A stretch of 64,000 nucleotides of DNA from Candidatus Gottesmanbacteria bacterium RIFCSPLOWO2_01_FULL_39_12b. GTDB taxonomy: Bacteria; Patescibacteriota; Microgenomatia; 2-02-FULL-39-11. Position 1 is the stretch's first letter. Every line of letters starts with the position of its first letter. A program made the position numbers and the translations under genes. Shown here in pieces: positions 8,572-55,965 of the stretch. Under the pieces are notes generated by a model. That model was not told where the DNA came from and searched no databases. It saw nothing but the letters and a program-made list of their open reading frames with translations. The stretch spans positions 75,053 to 139,052 of the forward strand of contig MFJR01000007.1 in the NCBI GenBank assembly GCA_001780955.1, read 5' to 3'.

Positions 8572-8583
8572 CTTATAATCGCG

Positions 8584-30254: not shown

Positions 30255-30258
30255 AAAT

Positions 30259-31259: not shown

Positions 31260-31817
31260 ATGAATATTAAAGGGAAAATAGTAACTTTAAGAGCTATAGA
31301 AGAGACTGATCTCAATCTTCTTCATAAATGGGCAAATGATCCTGAAATACAGGATATTATGGGCGTTATTCACTTCCCAAGTTCCATGGATTTCCATAGA
31401 TTATGGTTTCAAAACCTTAAGAGTGATCTTTTAAATCAACGGTTTGCTATTAATATGTCTGGTATTGGTTTGATTGGAATTTCAAGTCTAATGAGTATTG
31501 ACTGGCGAAATAATCATGCATGGCATGGAATAATGTTAGGAGACGCAAAAATTCGGGGAAAAGGATATGGTGTTGATGCAGTTATGGCTACGATGCGGTA
31601 TGCGTTTGAAGAATTACATTTTGAACGGCTTGATGGTTCAATAATTGAAAATAATAACATATCTTATTCCTTTTATTGTAATAAGTTAGGTTGGAAAGAA
31701 GAGGGTTTGAGAAGAAACTGGTATTTCAGGAGAGGTCGGTATTGGGATCAAATAATTGTAGGTATCACAAAGAAAGACTATGAGCAACTTGTGCAAAAAA
31801 CGAGATATTGGGACTAA
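31260..31817 (+). CDS. GNAT family N-acetyl/acyltransferase (RimJ/RimL-like)
   Basis: 185 aa. KIVTLRAIEETDLNLLHKWANDPEI...LHFERLDGSIIENNNISYSFYCNKLGWKEEGLRRNWYF: GNAT fold motifs. Confidence 0.75.
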   Translation: MNIKGKIVTLRAIEETDLNLLHKWANDPEIQDIMGVIHFPSSMDFHRLWFQNLKSDLLNQRFAINMSGIGLIGISSLMSIDWRNNHAWHGIMLGDAKIRGKGYGVDAVMATMRYAFEELHFERLDGSIIENNNISYSFYCNKLGWKEEGLRRNWYFRRGRYWDQIIVGITKKDYEQLVQKTRYWD

Positions 31818-33115: not shown

Positions 33116-33128
33116 AAAACTTAAACCT

Positions 33129-34375: not shown

Positions 34376-35119
34376 ATGAAAATAAGAAGAGACTACGACA
34401 AAGAACTAAAAAATGCGAATGGTTATAAGTATGCATATAATTTTGATTTGGATGTTATGCACCCATTTATGATCCGAGCCTTTGAACCTTTTTTAAGACA
34501 AGGAAATTTACTGGAGTTAGGAAGTTACCAAGGGAATTTTACAAAAAGACTTTTACCGTATTTCAATGATATAACTTGTGTGGAAGCATCAGATGAAATA
34601 ATTGCTCTTGCAAAAAAAAGATTAGGGAATAAAGTTAAGTTTATACATTCAATTTTCGAAACAGCAAGTTTACCTTCAAAATACGATAATATCATACTAA
34701 CTCATACGCTTGAACATCTTGATAATCCTGTGCTGGTTTTAAAAAGAATAAATAATGAGTGGTTGTCAGAAAAAGGCAGATTCTTTTTGGTTTGCCCCAA
34801 TGCCAATGCACCTTCCAGACAAATTGCCGTCAAAATGGGTTTAATAAGCCATAATACGGCGGTAACTCCGTCAGAAGTAAAACATGGTCATAGAACCACG
34901 TACACTCTTGATACATTAGAGAGAGATGCAAAGGCCGGGGGACTAAATGTAGTTTATCGTTCTGGTATTTTTTTTAAAGCTTTTGCAAATTTTCAATGGG
35001 ACAGGCTGCTTAAGACAGATATTATTTCCCAAGAATATTTAGAAGGATGCTACGTATTAGGACAACAATACCCGGACTTATGTTCCAGTATTTTTTTACT
35101 GTGTGAAAAAGGAAAATAA
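34376..35119 (+). CDS. Class I SAM-dependent methyltransferase
   Basis: LLELGSYQGNFTKRLLPYFNDITCVEASDEIIALAKKRLG (motif I/II). The track ORF starts at 34340. The ATG at 34376, after the thiolase stop, is preferred. Confidence 0.7.
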   Translation: MKIRRDYDKELKNANGYKYAYNFDLDVMHPFMIRAFEPFLRQGNLLELGSYQGNFTKRLLPYFNDITCVEASDEIIALAKKRLGNKVKFIHSIFETASLPSKYDNIILTHTLEHLDNPVLVLKRINNEWLSEKGRFFLVCPNANAPSRQIAVKMGLISHNTAVTPSEVKHGHRTTYTLDTLERDAKAGGLNVVYRSGIFFKAFANFQWDRLLKTDIISQEYLEGCYVLGQQYPDLCSSIFLLCEKGK

Positions 35120-35120
35120 T

Positions 35121-36041
35121 ATGAAAATATCCTTCTCTATCGCGGTGTATCGTAATGAAGGATCAATTAGGAAAACATATGAAAAAATCAAGAAGATTTT
35201 TGCTACTACGCTTAAAAATTATCAATACGAGTTTGTTTTTGTAGATGACGGTTCAGGCGATAATTCTTTAAAGGAAATACTAGATATTAAGGAGCATGAT
35301 TCAAAGGTTAAGGTAATTGCGTTTACGAGGAATTTTGGTCAAATGGCTGCCATGCTTGCGGGACTGAAAGAAGCAAGTGGGGATGCGGTTATAAACATAT
35401 CAGCAGATATGCAGGATCCTATTAGCCTTATTCCTCAAATGGCGGAAAAATGGAAAGAGGGATCAGAGATAGTTGTTTGCTACCGTATTAACAGGCAAGA
35501 TAATTTTGCCGCCAAATTATTTTCGCGTTGTGCCTATTCACTGTTAAGATTATCTATTCCTCAAATACCGGTAGGAGGGTTTGACTATGTTCTTATGGAT
35601 AGAGCGGTATTAGATGTGTTTAATTCTATTGATGTGCGCAACAGATTTTTCCAGGGTGATTTACTTTGGGCGGGTTTCAGAACGAGTTTCATTCCATACG
35701 TTCGTCTTAAACGGTTAATTGGTAAATCACAGTATAGTTGGGGAAAAAAGCTTAAAAATTTTTTAGATGCTTTTCTTGATTCTTCATACCTTTCAATCCG
35801 CCTTATTTCACTCATTGGTATTCTTATATCGTGTTTGGGTGTGATATATAGCATAACTATTGTTTATAGCTGGCTCAGGGGCGGTACGCCTTTTACTGGT
35901 TGGGCTCCGATTATGATTTCTATTTTATTTGTAGGCGGATTGATTATGGTGATGCTTGGTGTAATTGGTGAATATATCTGGCGGATATATGACGAGGTTC
36001 GTAAGAAGCCAAATTACATTATTAGAAAGAAATATCTATAA
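35121..36041 (+). CDS. Polyprenol-phosphate glycosyltransferase, GT2 with C-terminal TM helices (GtrB/ArnC/CsbB/DPM1-like), copy 1
   Basis: MKISFSIAVYRNEGSI...FVFVDDGSGDNSL...FTRNFGQMAAMLAGL...ADMQDP, plus two C-terminal hydrophobic helices. AGGA-like RBS 8 nt upstream of the ATG at 35121 (the track start at 35103 overlaps the upstream gene). Confidence 0.8.
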   Translation: MKISFSIAVYRNEGSIRKTYEKIKKIFATTLKNYQYEFVFVDDGSGDNSLKEILDIKEHDSKVKVIAFTRNFGQMAAMLAGLKEASGDAVINISADMQDPISLIPQMAEKWKEGSEIVVCYRINRQDNFAAKLFSRCAYSLLRLSIPQIPVGGFDYVLMDRAVLDVFNSIDVRNRFFQGDLLWAGFRTSFIPYVRLKRLIGKSQYSWGKKLKNFLDAFLDSSYLSIRLISLIGILISCLGVIYSITIVYSWLRGGTPFTGWAPIMISILFVGGLIMVMLGVIGEYIWRIYDEVRKKPNYIIRKKYL

Positions 36042-36043
36042 GT

Positions 36044-36057
36044 CTTGTAGCTACAAG
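36044..36057. other. Perfect 14-bp palindrome CTTGTAGCTACAAG (extends imperfectly to ~19 bp) immediately after the GtrB-like gene stop
   Basis: Read directly from sequence. Possible operator or weak terminator hairpin. No downstream T-tract. Confidence 0.2.
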
Positions 36058-36083
36058 GACAGAAACGACATAGATATACAGAA

Positions 36084-37208
36084 ATGAAACCATTCTCAAA
36101 ACCTATTTATATTACCCGGCCTCTGATGCCCCCGTTGCATAAATTTACCGCCAAACTACGGCAAATTTGGAAAAGTAAATGGCTATCAAATAACGGAATA
36201 CAGCTTCAAACGCTAGAGAAAAAAATTCAGAGAGTTCTAAAAGTTCCCCATATATCCTTATTTAATAACGGAACTATTGCACTGCTTACTGCTATTAAAA
36301 GTTTGAATCTCAAGGGAGAAGTTATTACAACACCTTTTACATTTCCGGCGACTCCTAACTGTCTTACTTGGTGCAATATTACACCTGTATTTTGTGATAT
36401 TGATTCCGTAACCATGAACATTGATCCTGCGAAAATAGAAAAAAATATAAATAAGAAAACTACCGGGATTTTGGCGGTTCACGTATTCGGATCACCATGT
36501 GATGTACCTACGATTCAGAAAATAGCTGAAAGAAATAGTTTAAAAGTTGTCTATGATGCCGCCCACGGCTTTGAAATCGAAATTAATAATATTGGAATCG
36601 GAAATTTTGGAGACATTTCAATGTTTAGTTTTCATCCGACAAAATTATTTCATACAGGAGAAGGTGGGGCACTTACCTGTAAGGACAAGATTCTTAAAAA
36701 GAAAATTGATTTACTGAGAAATTTTGGGATAAAAAATGAAGAGGAAGTTCTATTACCCGGGATAAACGGTAAGATGAACGAATTGATATCTGCGTTTGGA
36801 CATGTTCTTCTTCCGCTTGTTAAGGCTGAACAAAAGAGGCGAAAACGAATAAGCGAACTCTATAAACGCTATATAGATAATATACCTGGAGTTACCTATC
36901 AGAAAGATATACCCATGGTAAAAACTAATTATCAATATTTTGTAATCAGAATTAACAGTAGAATATTTGGGCGTTCGCGTAATGACGTATATAATATTTT
37001 TCGAACATATAACATATATGCAAGGAAGTATTTTTTTCCTCTTTGCAGCCAGTATCCATATTACAAGCATTTACCCTCTTCCAATCCGAAAAATTTACCA
37101 AACGCCCATAGGATAGCCGATGAAGTTCTAGCTCTGCCATTTTACGGACAGCTATCAATAAGTGAAGCGGAAAAAATTATTTCACTCTTAAAGTCATTAG
37201 GGAAATAG
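36084..37208 (+). CDS. DegT/DnrJ/EryC1/StrS-family PLP-dependent sugar aminotransferase
   Basis: 374 aa. LFNNGTIALLTAIKSL, DAAHGFE, and FSFHPTKLFHTGEGGAL (lysine retained). Confidence 0.85.
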   Translation: MKPFSKPIYITRPLMPPLHKFTAKLRQIWKSKWLSNNGIQLQTLEKKIQRVLKVPHISLFNNGTIALLTAIKSLNLKGEVITTPFTFPATPNCLTWCNITPVFCDIDSVTMNIDPAKIEKNINKKTTGILAVHVFGSPCDVPTIQKIAERNSLKVVYDAAHGFEIEINNIGIGNFGDISMFSFHPTKLFHTGEGGALTCKDKILKKKIDLLRNFGIKNEEEVLLPGINGKMNELISAFGHVLLPLVKAEQKRRKRISELYKRYIDNIPGVTYQKDIPMVKTNYQYFVIRINSRIFGRSRNDVYNIFRTYNIYARKYFFPLCSQYPYYKHLPSSNPKNLPNAHRIADEVLALPFYGQLSISEAEKIISLLKSLGK

Positions 37209-37209
37209 T

Positions 37210-37959
37210 ATGGATAAGAAGGATAAATATGTGCATAGTATGGATTGGACACAAAAAGCAGGAAACTACGAACTGCATAATTATCGAAAATATCAATACG
37301 ATCTTATTGCCAAATATATCGGAAATAATATTCTAGAGGTAGGAAGTGGAGAAAAAGGATTCACGAACGAAATAGTAAAAAATGCTAAAAATATTAAAAG
37401 ATTAATCTCAATAGAACCGTCTAAAACTCTTTTTTACCTTCATAAAAATAAACACCAATTTCCTGATTATGTTTCTTTTCATATGAAAGACCTTTTTGAT
37501 CTGAGTCTCAAAACATTCGGATCTTTTGATACAGTATTGTTTATCCATACACTGGAACACATAAAGGAAGATAAAAAAGCTTTGGATAAAGCCTGCGAGC
37601 TTCTGAGATCCGGGGGCTTTATCTTAATTGAAGTCCCGGCACTGCAATTTTTATTTTCTTCTCATGACAAAGCCTTGGGTCATTACCGCAGGTACAGAAA
37701 ACAACATTTACTATCTTTGATAGACAAAAAAAAATTAACAGTAGTAGATATGTGGTATCAGGATTTTTTGGGCATGTTAGGATCATTATTATTTTTTAAA
37801 TTTAAGAAGATAACCCTGAACTCAAGCTCCGGAGTCAATCTTGTAAAGAACCAAGGAAGATTGTACGACAACTACGTAGTTCCTCTTCAATGTTTCATCG
37901 AAAAACACGTTAGATTACCTATAGGATTAAGCTTAACCGCAGTACTTGAAAAAAAATAA
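37210..37959 (+). CDS. Class I SAM-dependent methyltransferase
   Basis: ILEVGSGEKGFTNEIV...LISIEPS...VLFIHTLEHI. Confidence 0.7.
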   Translation: MDKKDKYVHSMDWTQKAGNYELHNYRKYQYDLIAKYIGNNILEVGSGEKGFTNEIVKNAKNIKRLISIEPSKTLFYLHKNKHQFPDYVSFHMKDLFDLSLKTFGSFDTVLFIHTLEHIKEDKKALDKACELLRSGGFILIEVPALQFLFSSHDKALGHYRRYRKQHLLSLIDKKKLTVVDMWYQDFLGMLGSLLFFKFKKITLNSSSGVNLVKNQGRLYDNYVVPLQCFIEKHVRLPIGLSLTAVLEKK

Positions 37960-37988
37960 TTATCAATATTGATATGTATGAATGATCT

Positions 37989-39875
37989 ATGAAGCATTTG
38001 TTTAAAAATTCGAAAAAATATTTTTTCGTTACATTTTTCTTATTCATTTTAAGCCTGCTGTGGATTTTTTATACATATAATGACAAATTTCAGTATCAAG
38101 TCATCAAGAATGTCACATATAACAATATTGATAGTCAAAAGGAGTATTCCGAAGCGGTTAGTTCAAACTATAAAGACGTTGATATCAGTTTTTCACTTTT
38201 CGTTGATTCGAAGGATAATATCGTTGATATCTTCCAAACGGGATCTTTAGGCACAGGTTTGATCATGAGATTTTCTCAACCAGGATTATTACAAATAATC
38301 ATCGGTTATGACAATCTTCTGGGAAATAAAGTTTATTCGCTCACTGATTCGTTTGAATACAATAAAGCGCATGCTATAAAAGTCATAGTTACCAAAGAAA
38401 AACATCTTTGGGTTGCATACGATGACATACTTGTTATCAACACATATGACAAAAATATAAACTTTGATGTCTCTAAATTCCGATTAGGACAGTTTTTCCA
38501 TGATGAAAAGATAACCAAGAGTACTATAAGTAATTTAAAATACACGTACACTCTGTTTCGTACAGTTCCAGCATACTCAATTGTTAAAAAAATAATGACT
38601 TTGATATTTTTTGTCTTAAGCTTCCAATTATTGAAAAAAAATATCAGAATTTTTTCACGCGAGGAGAGAATCAAATATACGGCATTTATACTGGTTGTTG
38701 GATTCTTGATGGCAGTTTTTTATCTCATAGGCCAAAGTATATTAGGATATACCTATCCGAAAAATACATTCCTTTTTAACCCGGGTAATATGTTTAGTGA
38801 TTTCATCGGCCCGGTAAATAATCCGGATATAATCACCTATTCATTTTTCATGGCGAGTATAAAACTTTTCTTTTATCATTTTGGTACTGAGATTAGCTTA
38901 GTGCTATTTCTTGTAGGATCGATTGCATTTCTGACACTTATAAATATCAAGGAAATTGCCGGCAAAAAATTTAACACGACTTCAATATTCTATGCTGCCG
39001 TTTTTTCATTACTTAGCTATCCTGTCCTTTTTGCTATAAATAGGGGCAATTTTGAACTATGGGTTTTTGTTTTATTGTATTTATTCTCCTATTACTTAAA
39101 TCAGAAAAGATTTATCAGAAGTGCAATATTCCTTTCCCTCGCAATATCACTGAAAATATTTCCCGCAGTTTTTCTCATAGTTATGCTATCTTGTAAGAAG
39201 TTTAAGGCCGCTATATATGCTTGTTTATTCACATTATGTACTACATTGATATCCTTAGCTGTATTTGCAAGTAGATCATCCCATAATGTAAGCAAATTAA
39301 TTTCTCAATACGTCAATACCTATACTATTGGATACGTAAAGGAATATGTTGTGGATAATAGAGGACTGGACTTTGGGCACAGTCTTTATGGACTTCTTAA
39401 ATTGCGTATTTTTAGTTTCTACAAAACGACTAACATTACCGACGTTACTCTCAAGAAAATTACAACCCTTCTCAATTCGTATACCCGGATTCAAATATCG
39501 CTTCTTGTCATACTTTCGGCGTATATTCTTTTCATAGAAAAAGAATTATGGAAAAAAATTACTCTCATGGTAATTGCGATGAATTTACTGCCTTTTGTGT
39601 CTGCCGATTATAAACTAATCAATTTCTTTATCCCTTTATATCTATTTATTAACAAAAAAGAAAAAAGCAGAATTGATTTTCTTTATATCATTCTCTTTTC
39701 TTTACTTTTAGTACCGAAAAATTACTACACAGTACTCTTGAATTTACCGGATACCAGTTTATCGGTTTTATTGAATCCTTTAATAATGATTATTCTGGCA
39801 CTGTTTATCTTATTTGAGGGATTCAAAAATATGTATGTTAGGAAGCGAAGTTCGTATGTCTCCTCCGTGATATAA
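37989..39875 (+). CDS. Polytopic membrane protein with an N-terminal ~170 aa extracytoplasmic domain after TM1. Putative GT-C-like glycosyltransferase
   Basis: 628 aa. One N-terminal TM, then a beta-rich soluble segment, then about 10 TM segments (GNFELWVFVLLY, LAISLKIFPAVFLIV). Confidence 0.45.
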   Translation: MKHLFKNSKKYFFVTFFLFILSLLWIFYTYNDKFQYQVIKNVTYNNIDSQKEYSEAVSSNYKDVDISFSLFVDSKDNIVDIFQTGSLGTGLIMRFSQPGLLQIIIGYDNLLGNKVYSLTDSFEYNKAHAIKVIVTKEKHLWVAYDDILVINTYDKNINFDVSKFRLGQFFHDEKITKSTISNLKYTYTLFRTVPAYSIVKKIMTLIFFVLSFQLLKKNIRIFSREERIKYTAFILVVGFLMAVFYLIGQSILGYTYPKNTFLFNPGNMFSDFIGPVNNPDIITYSFFMASIKLFFYHFGTEISLVLFLVGSIAFLTLINIKEIAGKKFNTTSIFYAAVFSLLSYPVLFAINRGNFELWVFVLLYLFSYYLNQKRFIRSAIFLSLAISLKIFPAVFLIVMLSCKKFKAAIYACLFTLCTTLISLAVFASRSSHNVSKLISQYVNTYTIGYVKEYVVDNRGLDFGHSLYGLLKLRIFSFYKTTNITDVTLKKITTLLNSYTRIQISLLVILSAYILFIEKELWKKITLMVIAMNLLPFVSADYKLINFFIPLYLFINKKEKSRIDFLYIILFSLLLVPKNYYTVLLNLPDTSLSVLLNPLIMIILALFILFEGFKNMYVRKRSSYVSSVI

Positions 39876-39877
39876 TA

Positions 39878-41713
39878 ATGCAATTTACTATGCAGCAGAA
39901 ACTGTCTGATTTTGTCGTCCAGTTTATTGAAGAATTAGGAGTAAAGCATATTTTCCTTGTATCAGGTGGGGGGAATATTCATCTGATTGATTCAGTTGGA
40001 AAGAGTAAAAAATTTGACTACGTTTGTAATCATCACGAGCAAGCCTCAGCTACCTCAGCTGAAAGCTATGCTAGAGTTACAGGAAATATAGGTGTATGTT
40101 TGACTACAACCGGTCCGGGAGGAACGAATGCCATAACAGGTGTTCTTGGTGCCTGGCAAGACTCAATTCCTATTTTGGTTATTTCCGGTCAAGTAAAAAG
40201 AGAACTTCTTTCCTGGAAAGTTGATAAAAATCTGCGGCAGCTGGGAGACCAGGAAGTGAATATCGTTGAGATGGTGAAATCTATCACAAAATACAGCGTT
40301 ACGGTAATGGAGGCTTCGGATATTCGTTATCATTTGGAAAAAGCGGTTTACTTGGCAAGAAGTGGCAGACCCGGTCCGGTTTGGCTGGATATACCTCTTG
40401 ATATCCAGGGATCATTTATAGACCCAGCGAGTTTGCGAGGATTTGGTCCAAAAGAATTAACTCCTTCTTATCAGACGAACAAACAAAAAATTAAGGAATT
40501 AGTAAAAGTTGTAGTTCAAAGACTAGAAAAAGCAGAAAGACCCGTTCTTTATGCAGGTCATGGTATCCGGTTAAGCGGGGCGGAAAAGGAATTTTTGGAA
40601 TTTGTAAACAAGTTAAAAATTCCGGTGCTTTTAAGCTATGCAGGCTATGATTTACTTCCAAATGAGCATCCGTATTATTTTGGCAGAGCTCATGCTTTTG
40701 GACAACGAGCGGCAAATTTTATTATCCAAAATAGCGATTTATTAATCTCAGTTGGAGCCCGTTTTGATGTTCGAACCATAGGATTTACTTACAAAGCGTT
40801 TGCGAGGGCCGCGTATAAAGTAATGGTGGATATAGATAGGGGAGAACTTGAGAAACCCATTCTATCGCCTGACTTTCCCATTAACTGTGACGCAAAAGAG
40901 TTTATCTTGGAGATGATAAACCAACTTAAACAAAAACCGTTCAAAAAAAATATTTCAGACTGGCTAAATTATGGTAGAAGTTTAAACAAAAAATATCCAG
41001 TTGTTTTACCCCAATATTGGCAGGAAAGGAAGTATGTGAATCCTTACTGTTTCATAGAAACAATAGGCAAATATCTGAAACCGGATGAGATCATTGTATT
41101 ATCGGATGGTGTAGGACCTTTAAATTGTATGTATCAAGCTTTTGTAGTAAAAAAGGGGCAGAGAATAATTTTGAATAACGGGTGTGCTCAGATGGGGTAT
41201 GGTTTACCTGCGGCAGTAGGGGCGGCTTTTGCAGCCGGTAAAAAGAAGCGAATAGTTTGTTTTGAAGGTGATGGGAGTCTGCAGTTAAATATCCACGAAC
41301 TTCAAGTGATGAAACATCATAACCTTTCCATAAAACTTTTCATTTATAGCAATGATGGTTATCTCTCAATCCGCAATACGCAAAATAATCTTTTTGAGAA
41401 GAGACATGTTGCGGTTGATTCACACAGTGGTGTAAGTTCTCCTGATTTTGTGAAAGTAGCCAAAGCTTACGGTTTTCCTGCAGAACGCATATACAATCAT
41501 AAGGATATGGAAGAAAAAATCCAGAAAGTATTAAATTTTCCAGGACCCATAGTTTGTGATATAAATGCAGTGCGTGAGCTTATGCTCAGGCCTAAACTCA
41601 TGGCCAAAAAACTTCCAAACGGACAATTTGTATCGCCTCCTCTTGAAGATATGGGTCCGTTTCTGCCCCGAGACGAATTTAAACAAAATATGCTTATACC
41701 TATATGGGAATAA
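39878..41713 (+). CDS. Thiamine-diphosphate-dependent acetolactate-synthase-like enzyme (YerE-like candidate sugar C-branching enzyme rather than IlvB)
   Basis: 611 aa. N-terminal Pyr domain GGGNIHLIDSVGKS...CLTTTGPGGTNAITGVLGAWQDSIPILVISGQV. C-terminal PP domain GDGSLQLNIHELQ. No small-subunit gene nearby. Embedded in the sugar locus. Confidence 0.75.
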   Translation: MQFTMQQKLSDFVVQFIEELGVKHIFLVSGGGNIHLIDSVGKSKKFDYVCNHHEQASATSAESYARVTGNIGVCLTTTGPGGTNAITGVLGAWQDSIPILVISGQVKRELLSWKVDKNLRQLGDQEVNIVEMVKSITKYSVTVMEASDIRYHLEKAVYLARSGRPGPVWLDIPLDIQGSFIDPASLRGFGPKELTPSYQTNKQKIKELVKVVVQRLEKAERPVLYAGHGIRLSGAEKEFLEFVNKLKIPVLLSYAGYDLLPNEHPYYFGRAHAFGQRAANFIIQNSDLLISVGARFDVRTIGFTYKAFARAAYKVMVDIDRGELEKPILSPDFPINCDAKEFILEMINQLKQKPFKKNISDWLNYGRSLNKKYPVVLPQYWQERKYVNPYCFIETIGKYLKPDEIIVLSDGVGPLNCMYQAFVVKKGQRIILNNGCAQMGYGLPAAVGAAFAAGKKKRIVCFEGDGSLQLNIHELQVMKHHNLSIKLFIYSNDGYLSIRNTQNNLFEKRHVAVDSHSGVSSPDFVKVAKAYGFPAERIYNHKDMEEKIQKVLNFPGPIVCDINAVRELMLRPKLMAKKLPNGQFVSPPLEDMGPFLPRDEFKQNMLIPIWE

Positions 41714-42630
41714 TTAAAAGGAAAAACATTTTTATTACCGGCGGGTCAGGATTTATTGGCAGAAATTTACAGGAATATTTACATTCAAAATACACAATTT
41801 TTGCTCCATCTCATGTTGAACTTGATCTTCTGGATACAAAAAAAGTTGAACGCTTCATCCAGAATAACAATATTCAGATTATCATCCATGGGGCAAATAT
41901 TGGTGGAGGAAGGGATACGATAGATCAAAGAGATGTAGTTCAAACAAATTTGACGATTTTTTTTAATATCGTACGAAATCTTGATAGCCTTGAAAAAGTA
42001 ATTCATCTAGGGTCTGGAGCTGAATACGACAAGAGCAGGCCACTTATAGATGTGAAAGAAGGGGATTTTGATAAACAGATACCTCAGGATGATTATGGAT
42101 TTTATAAATATGTTTGTTCAAAGTATATCGACAAAACGGATAAAATCATATCTCTGAGGTTGTTTGCAGTATACGGTAAATATGAAAATTATCTCTTTAA
42201 GTTCATCTCAAATGCAATTCTCAAGAATTTATTTCACTTACCAATTATTATTAGCCAAAACGTATATTTTGACTATTTGTATATTGAAGATCTTATAAAA
42301 ATTATTGATTATTTCATAAACCATACTGCAAAACATAATGCATATAATATTTCAAGCGGAAAAAGAATTGATCTTCTTACGATTTCAGAAACTATTAATA
42401 ATATAAGCAATTTCAAATCAAAAATTATTCTTCTCAATAAAGGGTTAAATCACGAATATAGTGCAGATAATCATAGATTAACTAAAGAAATAACTGGTTT
42501 AAGTTTTACTTCTATAGAAGAGGGAATTAGAAAACTGTATGATTGGTATAAAAGTAATTTATTCAAAATAAATAGAAATGAAATAAAACAAGATCGTTAT
42601 ATTAAGTATATAAATGTGAAAAGGGATTAA
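41704..42630 (+). CDS. NAD(P)-dependent extended-SDR sugar epimerase/reductase (YerF / RfbJ / RfbS-like candidate)
   Basis: IFITGGSGFIGRNLQEYL glycine-rich N-terminus and a YxxxK region (YKYVCSKY). 308 aa. Overlaps the ThDP enzyme by 10 bp. Confidence 0.65.
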   Translation: MGIIKRKNIFITGGSGFIGRNLQEYLHSKYTIFAPSHVELDLLDTKKVERFIQNNNIQIIIHGANIGGGRDTIDQRDVVQTNLTIFFNIVRNLDSLEKVIHLGSGAEYDKSRPLIDVKEGDFDKQIPQDDYGFYKYVCSKYIDKTDKIISLRLFAVYGKYENYLFKFISNAILKNLFHLPIIISQNVYFDYLYIEDLIKIIDYFINHTAKHNAYNISSGKRIDLLTISETINNISNFKSKIILLNKGLNHEYSADNHRLTKEITGLSFTSIEEGIRKLYDWYKSNLFKINRNEIKQDRYIKYINVKRD

Positions 42631-42637
42631 AATCTAT

Positions 42638-43609
42638 ATGGTTAATAAAAGTTTGTCGGTGGTCGTACCTTGCTTTAATGAGGCAAAGAATATCCTCGAG
42701 ATGTACCGAAGGTTAAAAGAGGTATTAAGGAAAAATATTTCGGGTTACGAAATAATTTTTGTAGATAACGGAAGCACCGATCAATCTAGTAAAATATTTC
42801 AATCTATTGTAAAAAAGGATCCACATGTGGGAGTTTTAGTATATTCGCGTAATTTTGGTGCTCATGGAGCTTACACAGGAGGATTGGATTACGTAAAAGG
42901 AGAAGCTGTTGTTTTTATAGACGGTGATCAGCAAGATCCACCTGAGCTTATTGAAGAAATGATTATCAAGTGGCAGGAGGGTTATGATATTGTATATGGA
43001 ATAAGAAAAAGAAGAAAAGGAAATGTTTTAAGAAAATTATTTACAATATTCTTTTATAGAATTCTTAATAAACTCTCTTATGTAAAAATACCTCTGGACG
43101 CGGGTGATTTCTCATTAATGGATCGAAAAGTAGTTGAACTTATTAAAAATATGCCCGAACATAATAAATACTTTACAGGACTTAGAGCGTGGGTTGGGTT
43201 CAGACAAATAGGCATTGAGTATAGTAGAGCAAAAAGAAATGCAGGGGTAACGAAATTCAGTTTTATTGACTATATTAAGTGGGCTCTGCATAGCATTTCA
43301 TCTTTTTCATATAAGCCTCTTGAACTAATTTCTTATCTTGCTACTTTGGTGTTTCTTGTATCCTTTTTTGGAATTTTTGTCTATATTTTAGATTTTTTCT
43401 TTTATCCTAATAATCCTCGGGGTTTCATCACGCTTATTTTGGTTACCTTATTTCTTGGTGGTGTACAGCTATTGTGTCTTAGTATTATTGGGCAATATTT
43501 GGCAAATATATTCGAAGAAGTTAAAAATAGACCTAAGTATATTGTTAAAGAATCTTTTGGAAAGACGCTTCTTTTCAAAAAGAGCGTTCATGGTCAGGAA
43601 TATTCTTAG
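42638..43609 (+). CDS. Polyprenol-phosphate glycosyltransferase, GT2 with C-terminal TM helices (GtrB/ArnC-like), copy 2
   Basis: LSVVVPCFNEAKNI...IIFVDNGSTDQS...SRNFGAHGAYTGGL...DGDQQDP and a C-terminal two-helix anchor. Confidence 0.8.
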   Translation: MVNKSLSVVVPCFNEAKNILEMYRRLKEVLRKNISGYEIIFVDNGSTDQSSKIFQSIVKKDPHVGVLVYSRNFGAHGAYTGGLDYVKGEAVVFIDGDQQDPPELIEEMIIKWQEGYDIVYGIRKRRKGNVLRKLFTIFFYRILNKLSYVKIPLDAGDFSLMDRKVVELIKNMPEHNKYFTGLRAWVGFRQIGIEYSRAKRNAGVTKFSFIDYIKWALHSISSFSYKPLELISYLATLVFLVSFFGIFVYILDFFFYPNNPRGFITLILVTLFLGGVQLLCLSIIGQYLANIFEEVKNRPKYIVKESFGKTLLFKKSVHGQEYS

Positions 43610-43664
43610 TTTCAATTTTCACTAATTATTGTAGTAATGAATCCAAGATGATATTCTAAGTAAA

Positions 43665-44654
43665 ATGGATAAAAAATTTTGGAAAAAAAGAAATGTTTTT
43701 ATAACTGGAAGCACTGGTTTACTGGGTTTCTGGATAGCAAAATATTTATCGGATTATAAGGCAAACATAATTGCTTTAATTCACAACGATATTCCTCAAC
43801 CATTTATTAAAACCTTTTCTCGCATTACTGTGGTGAAAGGTGAGGTGACAGATTATAAAAAAATTCTTTCTTTACTAAACAAACATAATATAGAAATTGT
43901 TTTTCCGCTTGCAGCACAGACCATTTCTCCAGTTGCTAATACAAATCCAATTCATACTTTTGAAACTAATATAAAAGGAGCATGGATTACTTTAGAAGCT
44001 TGCAGAAACTCAAAGACAGTCAAAAGAATTATTTTTCCTTCAACCGATAAGGTATACGGTGAAGAAGAACGTCTTCCTTATACTGAAAATTCCAGGTTAA
44101 CTGCAAAGAGGCCATATACAGTTTCCAAAAGCTGTGCTGATCTTATAGCACAGGCTTATCATGCAAGTTATAATTTGCCTATTTGCATAACACGGTTTGG
44201 CAATTTTTTTGGAGGAGGAGACTTACGTTTTGACAGGCTTGTTCCATCCGTTATTTATTCAGCATTATATAATAAACCACTTGTCGTACGAAGCGATGGG
44301 AAATATATGAGAGATTTTATATATGTAGAAGATGCAGCAAGAGCTTGTATTGAATTAACAGAAGTAATGGATAGCCTAAAAATCCTTGGAAACGCCTTCA
44401 ATTTTAGTTACGAAAAACCGTTTGAGGTTTTAGAGCTCGTTGAACTGATTCTAAAAAAAATGGAATCTCCTGTTAAACCGAGAGTATTGGGACTTACATT
44501 AAATGAGGTAAGAGATCAATATCTATCTTCCAAAAAATCAAGAACACTGCTTGGCTGGAAACCTTCTTTTACTGTTGAACAAGGAATAGAACGGACAATT
44601 AAATGGTATAGAGATTATTTTAAACATATACGCCAGGATAACGACTCAATATGA
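43665..44654 (+). CDS. CDP-glucose 4,6-dehydratase-like (RfbG/DdhB family) NDP-sugar dehydratase
   Basis: N-terminal FWKKRNVFITGSTGLLGFWIAKYL (RfbG FW.GKRVFVTGHTGFKGSWL), PLAAQTISPVANTNPIHTFETNIKG, STDKVYGE, YTVSKSCADL (RfbG SKGCAEL). Confidence 0.65.
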   Translation: MDKKFWKKRNVFITGSTGLLGFWIAKYLSDYKANIIALIHNDIPQPFIKTFSRITVVKGEVTDYKKILSLLNKHNIEIVFPLAAQTISPVANTNPIHTFETNIKGAWITLEACRNSKTVKRIIFPSTDKVYGEEERLPYTENSRLTAKRPYTVSKSCADLIAQAYHASYNLPICITRFGNFFGGGDLRFDRLVPSVIYSALYNKPLVVRSDGKYMRDFIYVEDAARACIELTEVMDSLKILGNAFNFSYEKPFEVLELVELILKKMESPVKPRVLGLTLNEVRDQYLSSKKSRTLLGWKPSFTVEQGIERTIKWYRDYFKHIRQDNDSI

Positions 44655-45319
44655 ATAAGAAAACAGTACTTATAACCGGAACTTCACGTGGAATAGGATT
44701 TGCAATTAGAAAAATTCTTGAAAAGGAAAAATACGTTATTGTTGCTCCTAATCGACAGGAATTAAATTTAGCAGATAAGCATTCTGTTGAATACTTTATT
44801 CATAAAAATAGAAATTTAAATATTGATATCCTGATCAATAACGCAGGTATTAACAATCCTGAGTGGATCCAAAATCTGGACGATAAAAATATTGAAGAAT
44901 CTATGGAGGTAAATTTAATTTCCCCTATCAAGTTGATAAAAGCATTTGTTGGGCATATGATACAAAATAAATGGGGACGGATTGTAAATATAAGTTCTAT
45001 ATTTGGTGTTGTTGCCCGGGGAAAACAAGTCATGTATGCCGCTACAAAACATGGCCTGAATGGAGTTACAAAAGCTCTTGCGTTGGAACTAGGACCGTAT
45101 AATATTCTTGTGAATTCGGTCTGTCCCGGTTTTACCAATACTGATTTGGTGAAGAGAAACTCAAAAGAAAAAAATGCAGAAATAGCTTGCGATATTCCTC
45201 TTGGTCGTTTTGCAGAGCCAGAAGAAATTGCAGAATGTGTTCTTTTCCTTATTTCAGAAAAAAATACTTACATGAACGGAGCCAATATCATGATTGACGG
45301 CGGTTTTACCTGCAGATAG
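44651..45319 (+). CDS. Classical short-chain dehydrogenase/reductase (FabG-like)
   Basis: VLITGTSRGIGFAI, NNAGI, catalytic YAATKHGLNG. Confidence 0.8.
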   Translation: MNKKTVLITGTSRGIGFAIRKILEKEKYVIVAPNRQELNLADKHSVEYFIHKNRNLNIDILINNAGINNPEWIQNLDDKNIEESMEVNLISPIKLIKAFVGHMIQNKWGRIVNISSIFGVVARGKQVMYAATKHGLNGVTKALALELGPYNILVNSVCPGFTNTDLVKRNSKEKNAEIACDIPLGRFAEPEEIAECVLFLISEKNTYMNGANIMIDGGFTCR

Positions 45320-45321
45320 TC

Positions 45322-46419
45322 TTGTCTATGGATGAATTAGTCATCAAATCAAAAATAAAGGATTTTAAAGTTAAATTCGTTGATAATACAAATTTCCTTA
45401 AGGAAATGTTTACTATTCCTCATTATGTCGTTTTCGTAGGATCAATAGTCCACGAGTTTTACAAAGAAAAAATATTCGATCGGTTTCCCAACGAAAAAAT
45501 GATCGTTATGAAGCTTGATGAGGAAAAAAAGACAATCGATACTGCCATTAAACTTTATAAAAAGCTGATGACTAAACAAGGAAAGAAAAACCTGACCATG
45601 ATCTCTTTCGGCGGCGGCATAAATCAGGATATTGCTGGATTTGTTGCTTCCACTCTTTATCGGGGTATAAATTGGATTTATGTACCTACTACGCTTCTTG
45701 CTATGGCAGACAGTTCGATAGGATTGAAAACCTCCCTCAACTTTGGCTCAATTAAAAACATGATCGGTTCGTTTTATCCCCCGACTGAAGTTTATATCGA
45801 TATAAATTTCCTAAAAACGCTAAAAAGGCAAGATTATGCCAGTGGAGTCGGAGAGATAATGAAGCTTCTTCTGATGAAAGAAGATTCATCTAAGAACTTG
45901 GCTAAAATAGTGGAAAAAGTAGAAATATTAGACTGCCAAGAAGATAAAAAAAGGATGATAGAGATCATCAAAGAAGCCATGCAGATAAAATTAAGCTATA
46001 TGGAAGGTGATGAATTTGATAAAGGGAGAAGAAATTTGCTCAATTACGGGCATGAATTCGGGCATGCGCTTGAGCCAGCCTCCGATTATCAGGTCCCACA
46101 TGGGATTGCTATAGTAATTGGTATGATTTTTGCAAACTATATTTCAGTAAAAAGAAAATGGATGAGGAGTAAACTATTTGACTACCTGAATGAGAATATA
46201 TTTATTCCGTATATGAGAAGGAGTATGATAAAATTGAAAAAAGATTTTTTTAAACCGAGTACGCTTTTAGCGAATATGAAAAAGGATAAAAAAAGAGAGT
46301 CAAGCGATCTTGTACTCATTTTGCCCAAAGAAAATTTGAATTTGTGTAAAGTCCAAGATTTAACGATACAAGAATTTGAAACAGGGCTTAGAGAAGTGCA
46401 AAAAATATTAATATTTTAA
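45322..46419 (+). CDS. 3-dehydroquinate-synthase-like sugar-phosphate cyclase family protein
   Basis: GGGINQDIAGFVASTLYRGINWIYVPTTLLAMADSSIGLKTSLNF...KNMIGSFYPPTEVYID...NYGHEFGHALE...VPHGIAIVIGM: collinear DHQS motifs. Confidence 0.7.
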   Translation: MSMDELVIKSKIKDFKVKFVDNTNFLKEMFTIPHYVVFVGSIVHEFYKEKIFDRFPNEKMIVMKLDEEKKTIDTAIKLYKKLMTKQGKKNLTMISFGGGINQDIAGFVASTLYRGINWIYVPTTLLAMADSSIGLKTSLNFGSIKNMIGSFYPPTEVYIDINFLKTLKRQDYASGVGEIMKLLLMKEDSSKNLAKIVEKVEILDCQEDKKRMIEIIKEAMQIKLSYMEGDEFDKGRRNLLNYGHEFGHALEPASDYQVPHGIAIVIGMIFANYISVKRKWMRSKLFDYLNENIFIPYMRRSMIKLKKDFFKPSTLLANMKKDKKRESSDLVLILPKENLNLCKVQDLTIQEFETGLREVQKILIF

Positions 46420-46436
46420 TAGCAAAAGGAGAAATT

Positions 46437-47231
46437 ATGAACGATTTAGAGAATAAAATGGTTGAATCGTTGATTAACTTAAGAGATAAACATGGGGTAA
46501 TAGAGGTTAAGGCAGAGTTTGAAGCAGAAGCTTCCCGCATGAATGAACTCATGCGGTTAAAAGAGGTAGCGGATAAAGCAGGCTTAGGTTTAGTATTAAA
46601 AGTAGGAGGAGCTGAAGCGATTACCGATATGTTTGAAGCACAGCATATCGGAGTGACGGGACTTATTGCTCCCATGATTGAAAGTGCTTATGCCATGAAA
46701 AAATATCTTGAAGCAATAGGGAAATATTTTCCGCAGGATCTTAGGAAGACTATTCATTTTGGAGTTAATATAGAGACGTATCAGGCGTATAAAAATCTTG
46801 AAGAAATGCTTAATTTGCAAAAGATACACTTTATTGACACAATAACCTTGGGAAGAGTAGACATGTGTGGCTCTCTCAATATCTCAAGAATGGATATTAA
46901 CTGCGACCAAATTTTTGATATTGCTCTTGATATATTTACCAAAGCAAAGAAAAAAGGCATGCGGACAACTATGGGAGGAGGAATAGCCAAAGAAGCAATT
47001 CCGTTTATAAAGAAATTAGCTTCAAAAAAACTTTTGGATAGATACGAAACAAGGAAAATTGTGTTTCCTGTTGCAAAAAGTTTAACAAATATCAAAGAAG
47101 GGATCATTGCCGCAAATTCTTTTGAACTTCTTTGGCTGGAAAATAAAAAAAATTACTATTCCCTTATTTCTACCGAGGATGATTTAAGAATAGTAATGTT
47201 GAATAGCAGAATACCCCAAAAACAGGCATGA
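46437..47231 (+). CDS. HpcH/HpaI-aldolase / CitE-like TIM-barrel protein (tentative)
   Basis: GVTGLIAPMIESAYAMKK and DTITLGRVDMCGSLNI resemble the PMVE...and GxxDL motifs of HpcH/CitE aldolases. Weak. Confidence 0.4.
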   Translation: MNDLENKMVESLINLRDKHGVIEVKAEFEAEASRMNELMRLKEVADKAGLGLVLKVGGAEAITDMFEAQHIGVTGLIAPMIESAYAMKKYLEAIGKYFPQDLRKTIHFGVNIETYQAYKNLEEMLNLQKIHFIDTITLGRVDMCGSLNISRMDINCDQIFDIALDIFTKAKKKGMRTTMGGGIAKEAIPFIKKLASKKLLDRYETRKIVFPVAKSLTNIKEGIIAANSFELLWLENKKNYYSLISTEDDLRIVMLNSRIPQKQA

Positions 47232-48205
47232 AAAAAATAGTTTCAGTTGTTATTCCAACCTATAACGAAGAGGAAAACATAGAATACGCGTATGGTGAAA
47301 TAAAGAAAATATTTCGTTTGTTACCGAAGTATGATTACGAAATTGTCTTTGTAGACAATTATAGTACTGATTATTCAAGAAAGATAATAAAAGAAATAGC
47401 AAAAAAAGACGGTAAAGTAACAGCACTTTTCATGTCAAGAAATTTTACCTCTGAATATTCCTCTCAAGCAGCAATGAAACAGGCAATAGGAGATGCGATA
47501 ACGGTTGTAGACTGTGATTTGCAGGATCCCCCAGAAGTAATCCCGCGGTTCATTGCTGAATGGGAAAAAGGATATCAGGTAATTATAGGAGTAAGAAACA
47601 AAATCAATGATACGTTTTTGATGAGCAAAGTTAGAAGACTATTTTATGTTTTTTTTAAAAAACTAGCCAATATCGATATGCCTCTAAATGCCGGAAGTTT
47701 TTGCCTTTTGGATCGAAAAGTGATGGATGTTATAAATAGTCTTCCAGAGAGAAATCGTTTCTTTCGAGGACTCCGAGCTTGGGTCGGGTTCCGAGTATCC
47801 AAAGTGTATTATGAGAGAAAAGCTCGTCACTTGGGTGAAAGTAAGAATAAATTTTCCGATTACATCAATGATTCAGAGAGAGGGTTGTTGGGATTTTCAT
47901 TTATTCCTTTGGATGTTATGACATCTTTGGGGCTTTTATTAGTATGTGCGTCATTTGTTTTTATAGTAGGATATTTGTTTATGGTCTTTGTCTATGGGAA
48001 TCCAGTAAATGCGTCTATTCCGATTTTAATCGCTATCGTCTTTTTTGGAGGTGTGCAAACGCTTGCTATCAGTATCGTTGGGAAATATATTCAAATTATT
48101 TTTGAAGAAGTGAAAGGGAGACCTACGTATATAATCGATGAGGTTATTAACGATCATCGTCAGAGTTTAACCTATAAGACTCCAAAATTGCTGTACCAAT
48201 CGTAG
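47228..48205 (+). CDS. Polyprenol-phosphate glycosyltransferase, GT2 with C-terminal TM helices (GtrB/ArnC-like), copy 3
   Basis: VSVVIPTYNEEENI...IVFVDNYSTDYS...SRNFTSEYSSQAAM...DCDLQDP and a C-terminal membrane anchor. Confidence 0.8.
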   Translation: MKKIVSVVIPTYNEEENIEYAYGEIKKIFRLLPKYDYEIVFVDNYSTDYSRKIIKEIAKKDGKVTALFMSRNFTSEYSSQAAMKQAIGDAITVVDCDLQDPPEVIPRFIAEWEKGYQVIIGVRNKINDTFLMSKVRRLFYVFFKKLANIDMPLNAGSFCLLDRKVMDVINSLPERNRFFRGLRAWVGFRVSKVYYERKARHLGESKNKFSDYINDSERGLLGFSFIPLDVMTSLGLLLVCASFVFIVGYLFMVFVYGNPVNASIPILIAIVFFGGVQTLAISIVGKYIQIIFEEVKGRPTYIIDEVINDHRQSLTYKTPKLLYQS

Positions 48206-49164
48206 ATCTGTTTTATAATACCGCATAATGTGAATTTCGGCTTCCAACCTAATTTTTTCTCTATCTTTGCATAGTCAAGAGATTGAAAAGGAATTTCATT
48301 CCGAGCAGTATTTAATATCTTATAGTCGATTTTTTTCTGTAGGGTTTTCTCAATAAGTGTTATTAAATTTAGAACCGATAAATTCTCACTTGACCCGAAA
48401 TTGAACGCTTCTCCTTTTACTTTCCCAATATTTTTAGCAAGTAGTAGATAGCCATGTATCACATCTTTTACATAAATATAATCTCGGATATAAGTGCCAT
48501 CACTCCGTATCTTAAGAGATTCTTTGGTTGCAAGAGATTTCATAATGCCCGGAATAACGCGGGAAAAATTCAGATCTCCTTCGCCGTAAACGTTTCCAAA
48601 GCGTGTTACCACAACTGGAAGTCCGTAGGTCTTGAAGTAAGAATAGCTGATAAGGTCAGCAGCAGATTTAGATACTTCGTAAGGGTGATCACCCCGTAGT
48701 GGAGTATCTTCAACATATTTCTTTTCCGTTTTTCCATAAGCTTTATCGGAAGAAGCGACTATAATACCTTTTACCTTTGGAAAAAGGCGAGCACTTTCTA
48801 ATACATTTGTAGTACCGAGAATATTTGTTTCAAGAGTTCTTTTCGGGTTAGCATAGGCTATATCGACAAGCGGTTGGGCAGCAAGATGGAAAATCAGGTC
48901 GATGTCAAACTTAGTTACTAGATCAAACACGCTCTCAAAATTACAGATGTCTATATATACCAACGTCGTTTGTTCATCCAAGTTTCGGGAATAAAAATAA
49001 GAGTGAGGATTTCTAGTCTGATAAGTACTTATTACGTGGGCTTTTTGTCTTATCAATTCCTCAATCAGGTGAGACCCGATAAATCCTGTTCCACCTGTGA
49101 CTAATATGTTTTTGTCGGTAAAGTTTATTTCCATATTTTCCAGGGCGCGTTTCCTTTTTTCCAA
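48172..49164 (-). CDS. RfbG-like NDP-sugar 4,6-dehydratase (extended SDR). Likely the CDP-glucose 4,6-dehydratase partner of the adjacent cytidylyltransferase
   Basis: ILVTGGTGFIGSHL, HLAAQPLVDIAYANPKRTLETNILGT, SSDKAYG, YEVSKSAADL. Directly downstream of ddhA in the same operon. Confidence 0.7.
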   Translation of the reverse strand: MEKRKRALENMEINFTDKNILVTGGTGFIGSHLIEELIRQKAHVISTYQTRNPHSYFYSRNLDEQTTLVYIDICNFESVFDLVTKFDIDLIFHLAAQPLVDIAYANPKRTLETNILGTTNVLESARLFPKVKGIIVASSDKAYGKTEKKYVEDTPLRGDHPYEVSKSAADLISYSYFKTYGLPVVVTRFGNVYGEGDLNFSRVIPGIMKSLATKESLKIRSDGTYIRDYIYVKDVIHGYLLLAKNIGKVKGEAFNFGSSENLSVLNLITLIEKTLQKKIDYKILNTARNEIPFQSLDYAKIEKKLGWKPKFTLCGIIKQIYDWYSNFGVL

Positions 49165-55958: not shown

Positions 55959-55965
55959 TTAAAGA

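Follow-up and report, generated by a model that had tools for sequence, protein, structure and literature searches.

A candidate multi-component transmembrane glycosylation locus of at least 82 kb in a Gottesmanbacteria genome

A 64-kb stretch of DNA (here called the window) from Candidatus Gottesmanbacteria bacterium RIFCSPLOWO2_01_FULL_39_12b was analyzed, with three genes for GtrB/ArnC-type glycosyltransferases of family 2 (GT2) and a large set of genes for membrane proteins of the GT-C glycosyltransferase type as the main subjects. The organism belongs to the Microgenomates within the candidate phyla radiation (CPR)/Patescibacteria and comes from groundwater of the Rifle aquifer samples. 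The genomes of CPR bacteria are tiny, and a life attached to host cells is assumed for these organisms, whose surface chemistry is, to our knowledge, essentially undescribed. No paper on GT-C arrays in Patescibacteria, or on this locus, was found in the literature.

The window has a G+C content of ~33% and is nearly all coding. It belongs to a 557-kb contig and spans locus tags A2960_00775 to A2960_00980; every protein that was looked up was annotated as hypothetical. All 54 window open reading frames (ORFs) were scanned against Pfam and NCBIfam, and every gene with a match was related to glycan synthesis; no tRNA genes were found in the 64-kb window. The flanks were read from two contigs that are 100% identical to the window in their overlap with it, L029 (10 kb upstream) and L028 (~8.4 kb downstream). 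Because glycan genes extend past the window in both directions, the surface-glycan locus measures at least 82 kb, and the window is, by its gene families, part of this ~82-kb predicted cell-surface glycan locus.

Candidate donor synthases and GT-C proteins

A preliminary description of the DNA had singled out three paralogous GT2 enzymes with C-terminal membrane anchors and the architecture of GtrB and ArnC, and both features were borne out. The three proteins, GT2-1, GT2-2, and GT2-3, are 33 to 41% identical to one another over their full length, match PF00535 at 80.4, 112.3, and 102.5 bits, respectively (cut-off, 23.3 bits), and each carry two C-terminal hydrophobic helices, near residues 235 and 268. 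Full-length alignments to GtrB sll0501 (PDB 5EKP) gave E values of 9e-58 for GT2-1 (residues 6 to 308), 6e-76 for GT2-2 (residues 5 to 310), and 3e-61 for GT2-3 (residues 5 to 305); residues ~5 to 308 of the GT2s are colinear with residues 25 to 333 of the GtrB chain, the juxtamembrane region included. Each GT2 also aligned end to end with ArnC (E values of 1e-30 to 4e-39). Profile classification placed the three with the PgfS/ArnC type: the top NCBIfam model was PgfS (NF047588) in every case, at 206 to 254 bits (GT2-1, 206; GT2-2, 254) against an equivalog cut-off of 500, and the ArnC model (NF007986) matched over the full length at 136 to 148 bits (GT2-1, 138) against a cut-off of 529. Since both models align over the full length yet score far below their equivalog cut-offs, the GT2s are members of the family and orthologues of neither protein. 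At family level, the three are GtrB/ArnC-type polyprenyl-phosphate glycosyltransferases, for which sugar transfer is predicted. The GtrB residues D94, D96, R122, D157, and R200 were mapped onto the alignment of the GT2s, and all five are kept in GT2-2 (D95, D97, R123, D157, and R200). Assignment to the processive synthases of cellulose, chitin, or poly-N-acetylglucosamine was rejected because the QxxRW motif is missing and there are just two transmembrane (TM) helices, both C-terminal; the PgaC and NodC models matched no more than the N-terminal ~100 residues, at 24 to 56 bits.

Two further GT2 genes, both immediately upstream of GT-C genes, resemble those for DPM synthase (DPMS) and AglJ. For the protein encoded upstream of the PTPS_related/YfhO-like gene, the sole PDB match was the Pyrococcus furiosus DPMS 5MLZ (E value, 3.6e-12; residues 3 to 196), and the AglJ, PpgS, and Dol-P-hexose transferase models gave 52 to 76 bits, each below its cut-off. 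For the protein encoded upstream of the PMT_2/ArnT-like gene, the best PDB match was again 5MLZ (E value, 2.3e-19), over the whole catalytic domain, and the AglJ model gave 115 bits, below its cut-off.

About 12 large membrane proteins had been described as GT-C-like, and each was supported by Pfam matches, homologues, or fold; on this basis, all 12 named proteins belong to the GT-C superfamily. Since 12 of 12 are GT-C-like, the alternative that they are transporters was rejected, the Pfam, homologue, and Foldseek evidence pointing to GT-C in place of any transporter. The GT87-like protein is the sole GT-C in the co-directional gene run that holds the three GT2s. Among the 35 homologues of the PTPS_related/YfhO-like protein, 24 matched PTPS_related, 9 matched YfhO, and 4 matched PMT_2, and H33 and D34 were invariant. 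About 20 of the 89 homologues of the divergent GT39/PMT_2-like protein carry PMT_2 (PF13231) or bear a GT39 name; hhalign detected no relationship between this protein and family A of the array described below.

Seven of the 12 proteins are encoded in one array and fall into two families, A (n = 4; 30 to 46% identity) and B (n = 3; 32 to 46% identity). No Pfam or NCBIfam match was obtained for family A, either for the window members or for the 48 family members scanned. In family B, the YfhO model (PF09586) matched the 619-amino-acid (aa) protein at 29.8 bits (versus 28.5) and left the other two window members unmatched; of 50 family-B homologues, 4 matched YfhO and 9 matched DUF7657. Judged by these matches, family B is probably a divergent YfhO group. 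Sequence searches of the PDB with the array proteins gave nothing useful. One representative per family was modeled with AlphaFold (predicted local distance difference test scores, 91.3 for A and 91.2 for B). In Foldseek searches of the PDB, the membrane domain of the family-A model matched STT3, AftA, PglB, DPY19, and AglB (E values of 1e-6 to 4e-3), and the top 18 matches of the family-B model were all GT-C enzymes (E values of 2e-7 to 5e-5); over the A and B membrane domains together, the GT-C matches comprised STT3, AglB, PglB, AftA, AftD, ArnT, and DPY19, and nothing other than GT-C appeared. The C-terminal beta-sandwich matched carbohydrate-binding modules (CBMs; CBM6/29/35 for family A) and the carbohydrate-binding domain of BcsB. 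Five array proteins end in this CBM-like domain of ~130 aa, which is absent from the 603-aa member of family A and the 619-aa member of family B. In hhalign comparisons, it was all that A and B had in common (99.6%), and no other relationship between them was detected. Family B aligned with the PTPS_related/YfhO-like family across the catalytic N terminus (97.4%), with INDG opposite SHDG; the alignment of family A with the PTPS_related group was weak (81.5%). A and B are two ancient families of GT-C type whose sole common part is the C-terminal carbohydrate-binding-like domain.

In family A, D128, Y132, and R171 are invariant in 48 sequences, and by the inferred topology D128 lies in the loop after TM4, which is preceded by a Lys/Arg-rich, hence cytoplasmic, loop. 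At least 90% of family-B sequences keep E47 and D81, and the INDG motif occupies residues 40 to 43, with the Asp at 42. D128 of family A, E47/D81 of family B, and H33-D34 of the PTPS_related/YfhO-like protein are all conserved residues in the predicted first outside loop. Family and fold together predict that the A and B proteins use polyprenyl-phosphate sugars. An identity as STT3-type oligosaccharyltransferases was tried and rejected, as WWD[YWF]G occurs in none of the 11 complete GT-C-like proteins. For each array paralogue, 5 to 68 homologues from other genomes outscored the best in-window paralogue, which indicates that the array copies are old and individually retained and rules out a recent tandem amplification. 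The seven genes probably serve different linkages or different sites.

Table 1. Main features of the window, with coordinates counted from its first nucleotide
Feature	Coordinates	Strand	Evidence or remark
GT2-1, GtrB/ArnC-type polyprenyl-phosphate glycosyltransferase (predicted)	35103-36041	+	GTG start; alternative first in-frame ATG at 35121, used by one gene caller
GT2-2, GtrB/ArnC-type polyprenyl-phosphate glycosyltransferase (predicted)	42638-43609	+	Most canonical of the three
GT2-3, GtrB/ArnC-type paralogue	47228-48205	+	Ser at GtrB D157 position
DPM-synthase/AglJ-like GT2, candidate fourth lipid-sugar synthase	248-1003	+	Directly upstream of GT-C gene at 1022
DPM-synthase/AglJ-like GT2, candidate fifth lipid-sugar synthase	62416-63132	+	Overlaps start of PMT_2 gene; gene call from L028
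PTPS_related/YfhO-like GT-C	1022-2674	+	PTPS_related 21.4 bits, just below cut-off
PIG-V-like (GT76-like; Mannosyl_trans2) GT-C	4487-5650	+	PF04188 31.6 bits versus 22.4; 11 hydrophobic segments
Family-A GT-C	9699-11915	-	C-terminal CBM-like domain
Family-A GT-C	11925-14144	-	C-terminal CBM-like domain
Family-A GT-C	14152-16362	-	C-terminal CBM-like domain
Family-A GT-C	16359-18170	-	603 aa; without CBM-like domain
Family-B (divergent YfhO-like) GT-C	18170-20416	-	
Family-B (divergent YfhO-like) GT-C	20448-22307	-	619 aa; without CBM-like domain
Family-B (divergent YfhO-like) GT-C	22367-24625	-	
GT87-like GT-C	37989-39875	+	PF09594 48.1 bits versus cut-off 25; at least 9 hydrophobic segments
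Divergent GT39/PMT_2-like GT-C	58554-60116	-	Own sequence without Pfam match; NFDHG motif after TM1
PMT_2/ArnT-like GT-C, cut by window end	63120-64000	+	PF13231 51.7 bits versus 26.1; 467 aa in full contig (L028)
Wzm/Wzt-type ABC-2 polysaccharide exporter	Permease 5679-6461, ATPase 6466-7215	+	PF01061, PF00005
Two GT4 glycosyltransferases adjoining the A/B array	7219-9705	+	PF00534
Wzx/MOP-family flippase candidate	61112-62419	+	PF01943, PF13440; 11 hydrophobic segments
RfbH, CDP-6-deoxy-4-keto-hexose 3-dehydrase, marker of 3,6-dideoxyhexose pathway	27246-28508	-	NCBIfam equivalog 628 bits versus cut-off 423
DegT/DesI-like sugar 4-aminotransferase	36084-37208	+	Adjoins GT2-1; PF01041 302 bits; DesI model 266 bits, below cut-off
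CDP-glucose 4,6-dehydratase-like	48172-49164	-	TIGR02622 204.7 bits, just below cut-off 278
Glucose-1-phosphate cytidylyltransferase-like	49125-49904	-	TIGR02623 265.5 bits, just below cut-off 300

Rare-sugar genes and flanking regions

Genes near the three GT2s point to the kinds of sugar that may be handled. They include sugar-modifying genes (the DesI-like aminotransferase, three methyltransferases, and one GNAT), two acyl-CoA enzymes (a thiolase and a 3-hydroxyacyl-CoA dehydrogenase), and three possible makers of branched sugars, namely, an acetolactate-synthase-like thiamine diphosphate (ThDP) enzyme, an AroB-related sugar-phosphate cyclase-like protein, and an HpcH-like aldolase; GT2-3 directly follows the genes for the last two. 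Including the one in Table 1, the window holds two CDP-glucose 4,6-dehydratase-like genes, both just under the cut-off. From family knowledge, 3,6-dideoxy, amino, N-acylated, or branched rare sugars are the likely cargo.

Several of these genes form suggestive sets. The region 31260-34361 encodes a GNAT, a 3-hydroxyacyl-CoA dehydrogenase, a 186-aa protein, and a thiolase (equivalog match, 569 bits) and stands beside the DesI-like aminotransferase gene at 36084-37208; together the set could yield an N-(3-hydroxybutyryl) amino sugar. The ThDP enzyme (39878-41713) scored 387 bits with TIGR00118, under the cut-off, and is encoded within a sugar operon near the CDP-sugar genes and RfbH; presumably it resembles enzymes of the YerE type, which attach two-carbon branches to CDP-3,6-dideoxy-4-keto-hexoses. 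At 45322-47231, the AroB-related putative sugar-phosphate cyclase (TIGR04425, 377 bits versus a cut-off of 400) is followed by the HpcH/HpaI-like aldolase, and a split transketolase pair lies at 55170-56877 and recurs near GtrB-like or array genes in loci L012, L013, L020, L027, and L032. The cyclase, aldolase, and split transketolase hint at a pathway to a cyclitol or a branched or higher-carbon sugar.

Two other observations concern the central part of the window. Downstream of a WbqC-like gene, 29292-31221 encodes two tandem 320-aa paralogues with weak matches to the GH32 N-terminal domain, GH130, and a GINT1_N-like beta-propeller. In the 607-aa protein encoded at 25413-27236, a class I methyltransferase domain is confined to residues 72 to 242, and the other ~360 residues have no family match.

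No fewer than six additional GT-C-like genes lie in the flanks. Upstream, L029:1-8482 carries five in tandem, four of them for PMT/PMT_2 proteins with DE/WDE loop motifs and the fifth for a 649-aa, 12-TM protein without a Pfam match; a gene for an amine-oxidase-like flavoprotein follows the five. Downstream, L028:12643-15008 (5 to 7 kb past the window end) contains a gene for a Bro-N domain protein inside the glycan locus; Bro-N domains are usually phage associated. After the Bro-N gene come an N-terminal GT-C-like fragment of 290 aa and, as a separate ORF, a hydrophilic protein of 127 aa; the two may be remnants of a disrupted GT-C gene. A gene for a 1,051-aa Wzy_C+PMT_2 fusion protein is next. 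Window and flanks together hold no fewer than 5 candidate donor synthases and 18 GT-C genes, so that the ratio of 3 donors to 12 GT-C enzymes in the preliminary description was incomplete, as it left out the two DPMS-like GT2s and the flank genes.

Synteny, proposed mechanism, and alternatives

A family-A profile, applied with one genome per species, gave 17 Microgenomates loci (L005 to L021) and 6 distant loci, which were compared by tblastn with all window proteins; the flank taken was 10 kb, such that GtrB-like genes farther away would have been missed. Where the flank allows, the arrays of relatives contain three to six A/B genes, usually in the order B-short, A-short, B-long, A-long, and this alternation may reflect A/B or short/long partnerships. 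In 13 of the 17 Microgenomates loci, the array has a homologue of the GT4 gene at 7219-8571 as its immediate neighbor, and Wzm/Wzt genes lie near the array in at least 10 related loci. The clearest GtrB/family-A pairing was found in a cyanobacterial locus (L025:8126-12154; Potamolinea sp. metagenome-assembled genome), where a GtrB homologue, a methyltransferase-like gene, and a gene for a 724-aa distant family-A homologue are co-directional; the GtrB homologue is full length (E value, 2e-63 to 5EKP) and lies two genes upstream of the family-A homologue. This pairing is absent from two Coleofasciculus loci (L022 and L023). A metagenome scan with GT2-2 gave few close relatives with long flanks, and this co-occurrence test is qualitative; where the flank was long enough, a DegT gene was found immediately upstream and a multi-TM ORF of 450 to 545 aa nearby. 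A DegT gene is directly upstream of GtrB-like genes in L032, L037, L038, L040, and L046. The co-occurrence of GT2 and GT-C genes in relatives, which the preliminary description had proposed as a check, thus held for L013, L025, and the metagenome relatives of GT2-2, which adjoin multi-TM ORFs, and was otherwise not seen within 10 kb of the Microgenomates arrays, with a GtrB-like gene near the array in 1 of 17 loci.

With GT2s of the polyprenyl-phosphate type and membrane proteins of the GT-C type, the family evidence is best read, as originally proposed, as extracytoplasmic glycosylation that draws on lipid-linked sugars. A large multi-component transmembrane glycosylation system is the best explanation of the locus, and on family membership we put its probability at roughly 0.6. 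The case is built from family and fold membership, motif conservation, and synteny; donor identity, flipping, the acceptor, and the pairing of donors with GT-C enzymes we infer. In the proposed scheme, cytoplasmic enzymes would make unusual nucleotide sugars (CDP-glucose-derived 3,6-dideoxy, amino, and methylated, possibly also N-acylated or branched), which the three GtrB/ArnC-type GT2s would load singly onto polyprenyl phosphate at the cytoplasmic face; the two DPMS-like GT2s probably load sugars likewise. A flippase other than GtrA, either the Wzx/MOP protein or one encoded elsewhere, would turn the lipid-linked sugars to the outside, where the GT-C enzymes (GT87-, GT39/PMT_2-, PIG-V-, and PTPS_related/YfhO-like proteins and the A/B array) would pass them to acceptors. 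For the A/B array, the acceptor would be a glycopolymer made by the neighboring GT4/GT2 enzymes and exported by Wzm/Wzt, which is the most likely choice in view of the conserved gene order and of the CBM-like domain found in most array proteins. The earlier picture of three donors feeding 12 GT-C enzymes gave way to a modular one, which probably comprises a conserved Wzm/Wzt-GT4-A/B-array unit, acting probably on a polysaccharide, and separate units of GT2 and GT-C among the rare-sugar genes.

Several observations weigh against this explanation. Just 1 of the 17 Microgenomates loci (L013) has a GtrB-like gene 10 kb or less from the array, from which it follows that the array may not depend on the three GT2s. 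The Foldseek TM-scores of the array models to solved GT-C structures are just 0.3 to 0.47, which denotes the general fold and no specific family. In GT2-1, S100-A-D102 stands in place of D-x-D, with the first Asp lost, and R128, D161, and R204 are kept. In GT2-3, the equivalent of GtrB D157 is Ser157, with D95, D97, R123, and R200 kept, and the D157N mutation abolishes GtrB activity (PMC4728340); not all three GT2s are therefore proven to be competent donor synthases. GT2-3 could be inactive, use another acidic residue, or handle an unusual donor. No GtrA gene was found: a search of all frames of the window gave no ORF of 70 to 220 aa with at least three hydrophobic segments, in agreement with the preliminary description; the intergenic gaps (at most 247 nucleotides, the next 140) leave no room for one; and PF04138 had no match in the 10 kb upstream or the ~8.4 kb downstream, although the rest of the genome could hold a member. 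The 127-aa ORF at L028:14625-15008 was considered as a GtrA candidate and rejected as hydrophilic. The absence of GtrA does not refute the scheme, because for similar systems a Wzx-type flippase (GacK) or a MATE-type one has been suggested (PMC8035078, PMC11127046). Alternatively, the Wzx-like gene may belong to a Wzx/Wzy route, since a Wzy_C-containing protein is encoded just downstream. In addition, neither a priming phosphoglycosyltransferase nor an LCP ligase was seen in the window.

That the array keeps GT4 and Wzm/Wzt genes as neighbors across loci, with a GtrB-like gene nearby in just 1 of the 17, speaks for the idea that the modules are separate, such that the A/B array acts solely in the Wzm/Wzt-GT4 pathway and draws on other donors (e.g., products of the DPMS-like GT2s, or donors encoded elsewhere). 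The array may then build a polymer stepwise outside the cell, as in mycobacterial arabinan and mannan synthesis, with the GtrB-like enzymes serving just the local GT87-like, GT39-like, and PMT_2 proteins. The GtrB-like genes indeed lie more than 10 kb from the array, in opposite orientation, among their own GT87-like GT-C and sugar-tailoring genes, and the DPMS-like GT2 gene at the start of the window is in the plus-strand run of Wzm/Wzt. We regard this separation as possible yet rather doubtful, given that the 10-kb limit would miss GtrB-like genes slightly farther off, that L013 and the cyanobacterial L025 do have a GtrB-like gene near A-type genes, and that the region forms a single, unbroken glycan locus.

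Two other alternatives differ in the acceptor or in what is transferred. GtrB-dependent protein O-glycosylation is reportedly known from streptococci, and this precedent, the position of PgfS as the top model for the three GT2s (206 to 254 bits), and the many GT39/PMT_2-type genes in and around the window would fit a system that modifies S-layer proteins, pili, or disordered Ser/Thr-rich regions with no polysaccharide involved. We consider it improbable, since the PgfS scores are far under the 500-bit equivalog cut-off, A/B members carry CBM-like domains and are encoded beside a polysaccharide ABC exporter, and no candidate acceptor protein was identified within the window. The A/B proteins could also be oligosaccharyltransferase- or ligase-like and transfer an exported polyprenyl-PP-linked polymer en bloc to proteins or the wall, an idea to which the top structural matches (STT3, PglB, and AglB) and the adjoining ABC-transporter pathway lend some color. 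It appears very unlikely: WWDYG is in none of the proteins, TM-scores of ~0.4 are generic for the GT-C fold and extend to AftA, AftD, ArnT, and DPY19, and four to seven paralogous transferases would be unusual for one en bloc step. Family B, moreover, matches YfhO, whose characterized members add single sugars (PMC5836110).

Multi-component transmembrane glycosylation is the preferred interpretation. A bolder extension, which we offer tentatively and think more apt to fail than to hold, is that the A/B array with Wzm/Wzt-GT4 forms a Microgenomates-specific extracytoplasmic line that builds or heavily branches an as yet undescribed wall or surface polysaccharide from polyprenyl-phosphate-linked rare sugars (3,6-dideoxy, amino, or branched). 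If this were true, mycobacterial arabinan synthesis would have an equivalent in the CPR, one that occupies ~7% of a genome of roughly 1 Mb, and the assembly line might shape how these epibionts present themselves to hosts and phages. The commitment of more than 80 kb of this genome to surface-glycan genes suggests that the glycan matters greatly to the lifestyle. The A/B arrays, conserved across Microgenomates and annotated as hypothetical, are concrete targets for new GT-C (CAZy) families, and the three GtrB paralogues among rare-sugar genes offer a test of the breadth of sugar specificity of polyisoprenyl-phosphate glycosyltransferases.

Comparison with known systems

The locus GT2s have the same GT-A domain, juxtamembrane region, and two TM helices as GtrB of the GtrA/GtrB/Gtr* systems of Shigella and Salmonella and of Synechocystis; most active-site residues are kept, and GT-C enzymes are present in the locus as likely consumers. 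The locus differs from the Gtr systems in having no GtrA, in encoding three GtrB paralogues instead of one, in the missing D157 equivalent of GT2-3, and in GT-C partners that are not adjacent in a three-gene cassette. The surroundings of the GT2 genes are different as well, and because these lie amid deoxy- and amino-sugar tailoring genes, glucose is unlikely to be the sole sugar. With ArnB/ArnC/ArnT, the locus has in common a GtrB-like GT2 gene beside a DegT-family aminotransferase gene and a GT-C gene, and the DegT-GT2-multi-TM pattern recurs in relatives; however, the GT2 scores do not come near the equivalog cut-off of ArnC, and the aminotransferase is closest to a DesI-like model rather than to ArnB. 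Homologues of ArnA and ArnD were not found in the locus, and no lipid A genes were seen in the window.

Mycobacterial arabinan and mannan assembly, with its decaprenyl-phosphate-arabinose (DPA) and polyprenyl-phosphate-mannose (PPM) donors and the GT-C enzymes EmbA/B/C, AftA-D, and PimE/GT87, likewise combines many paralogous GT-Cs with few polyprenyl-phosphate-sugar donors, and the Emb/Aft enzymes, which draw on one donor, parallel the seven-gene array. Some GT-Cs on both sides carry C-terminal carbohydrate-binding modules or domains like them, the structural matches include AftA and AftD, and one locus gene is GT87-like. Unlike the mycobacterial enzymes, the locus proteins have no sequence-level Emb/Aft membership, and the donors would come from GtrB- and DPMS-type GT2s; no genes for DPPR synthase or DprE were seen in the locus.

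The CsbB/GtcA/YfhO, GacI/J/K/L, and Csd systems, which glycosylate Gram-positive wall polymers (reviewed in PMC8035078), also combine a GtrB-type GT-A enzyme with a YfhO-type GT-C enzyme. As is proposed for the locus, the acceptor polymer comes by an ABC-transporter pathway, a Wzx-type protein can replace GtrA (GacK), and some GT-C enzymes have carbohydrate-binding domains (PMC8035078, PMC11127046). The Gram-positive systems have a single GT-C, whereas the arrays comprise four conserved orthologue types with three to seven genes per locus; in addition, the locus is far larger, with its donor synthases and GT-C genes at or above the tallies given earlier, and family A has no Pfam match. The locus is thus of a known kind, and what distinguishes it is a conserved GT-C family that lies outside current Pfam models and the scale of the system in a minimal genome.

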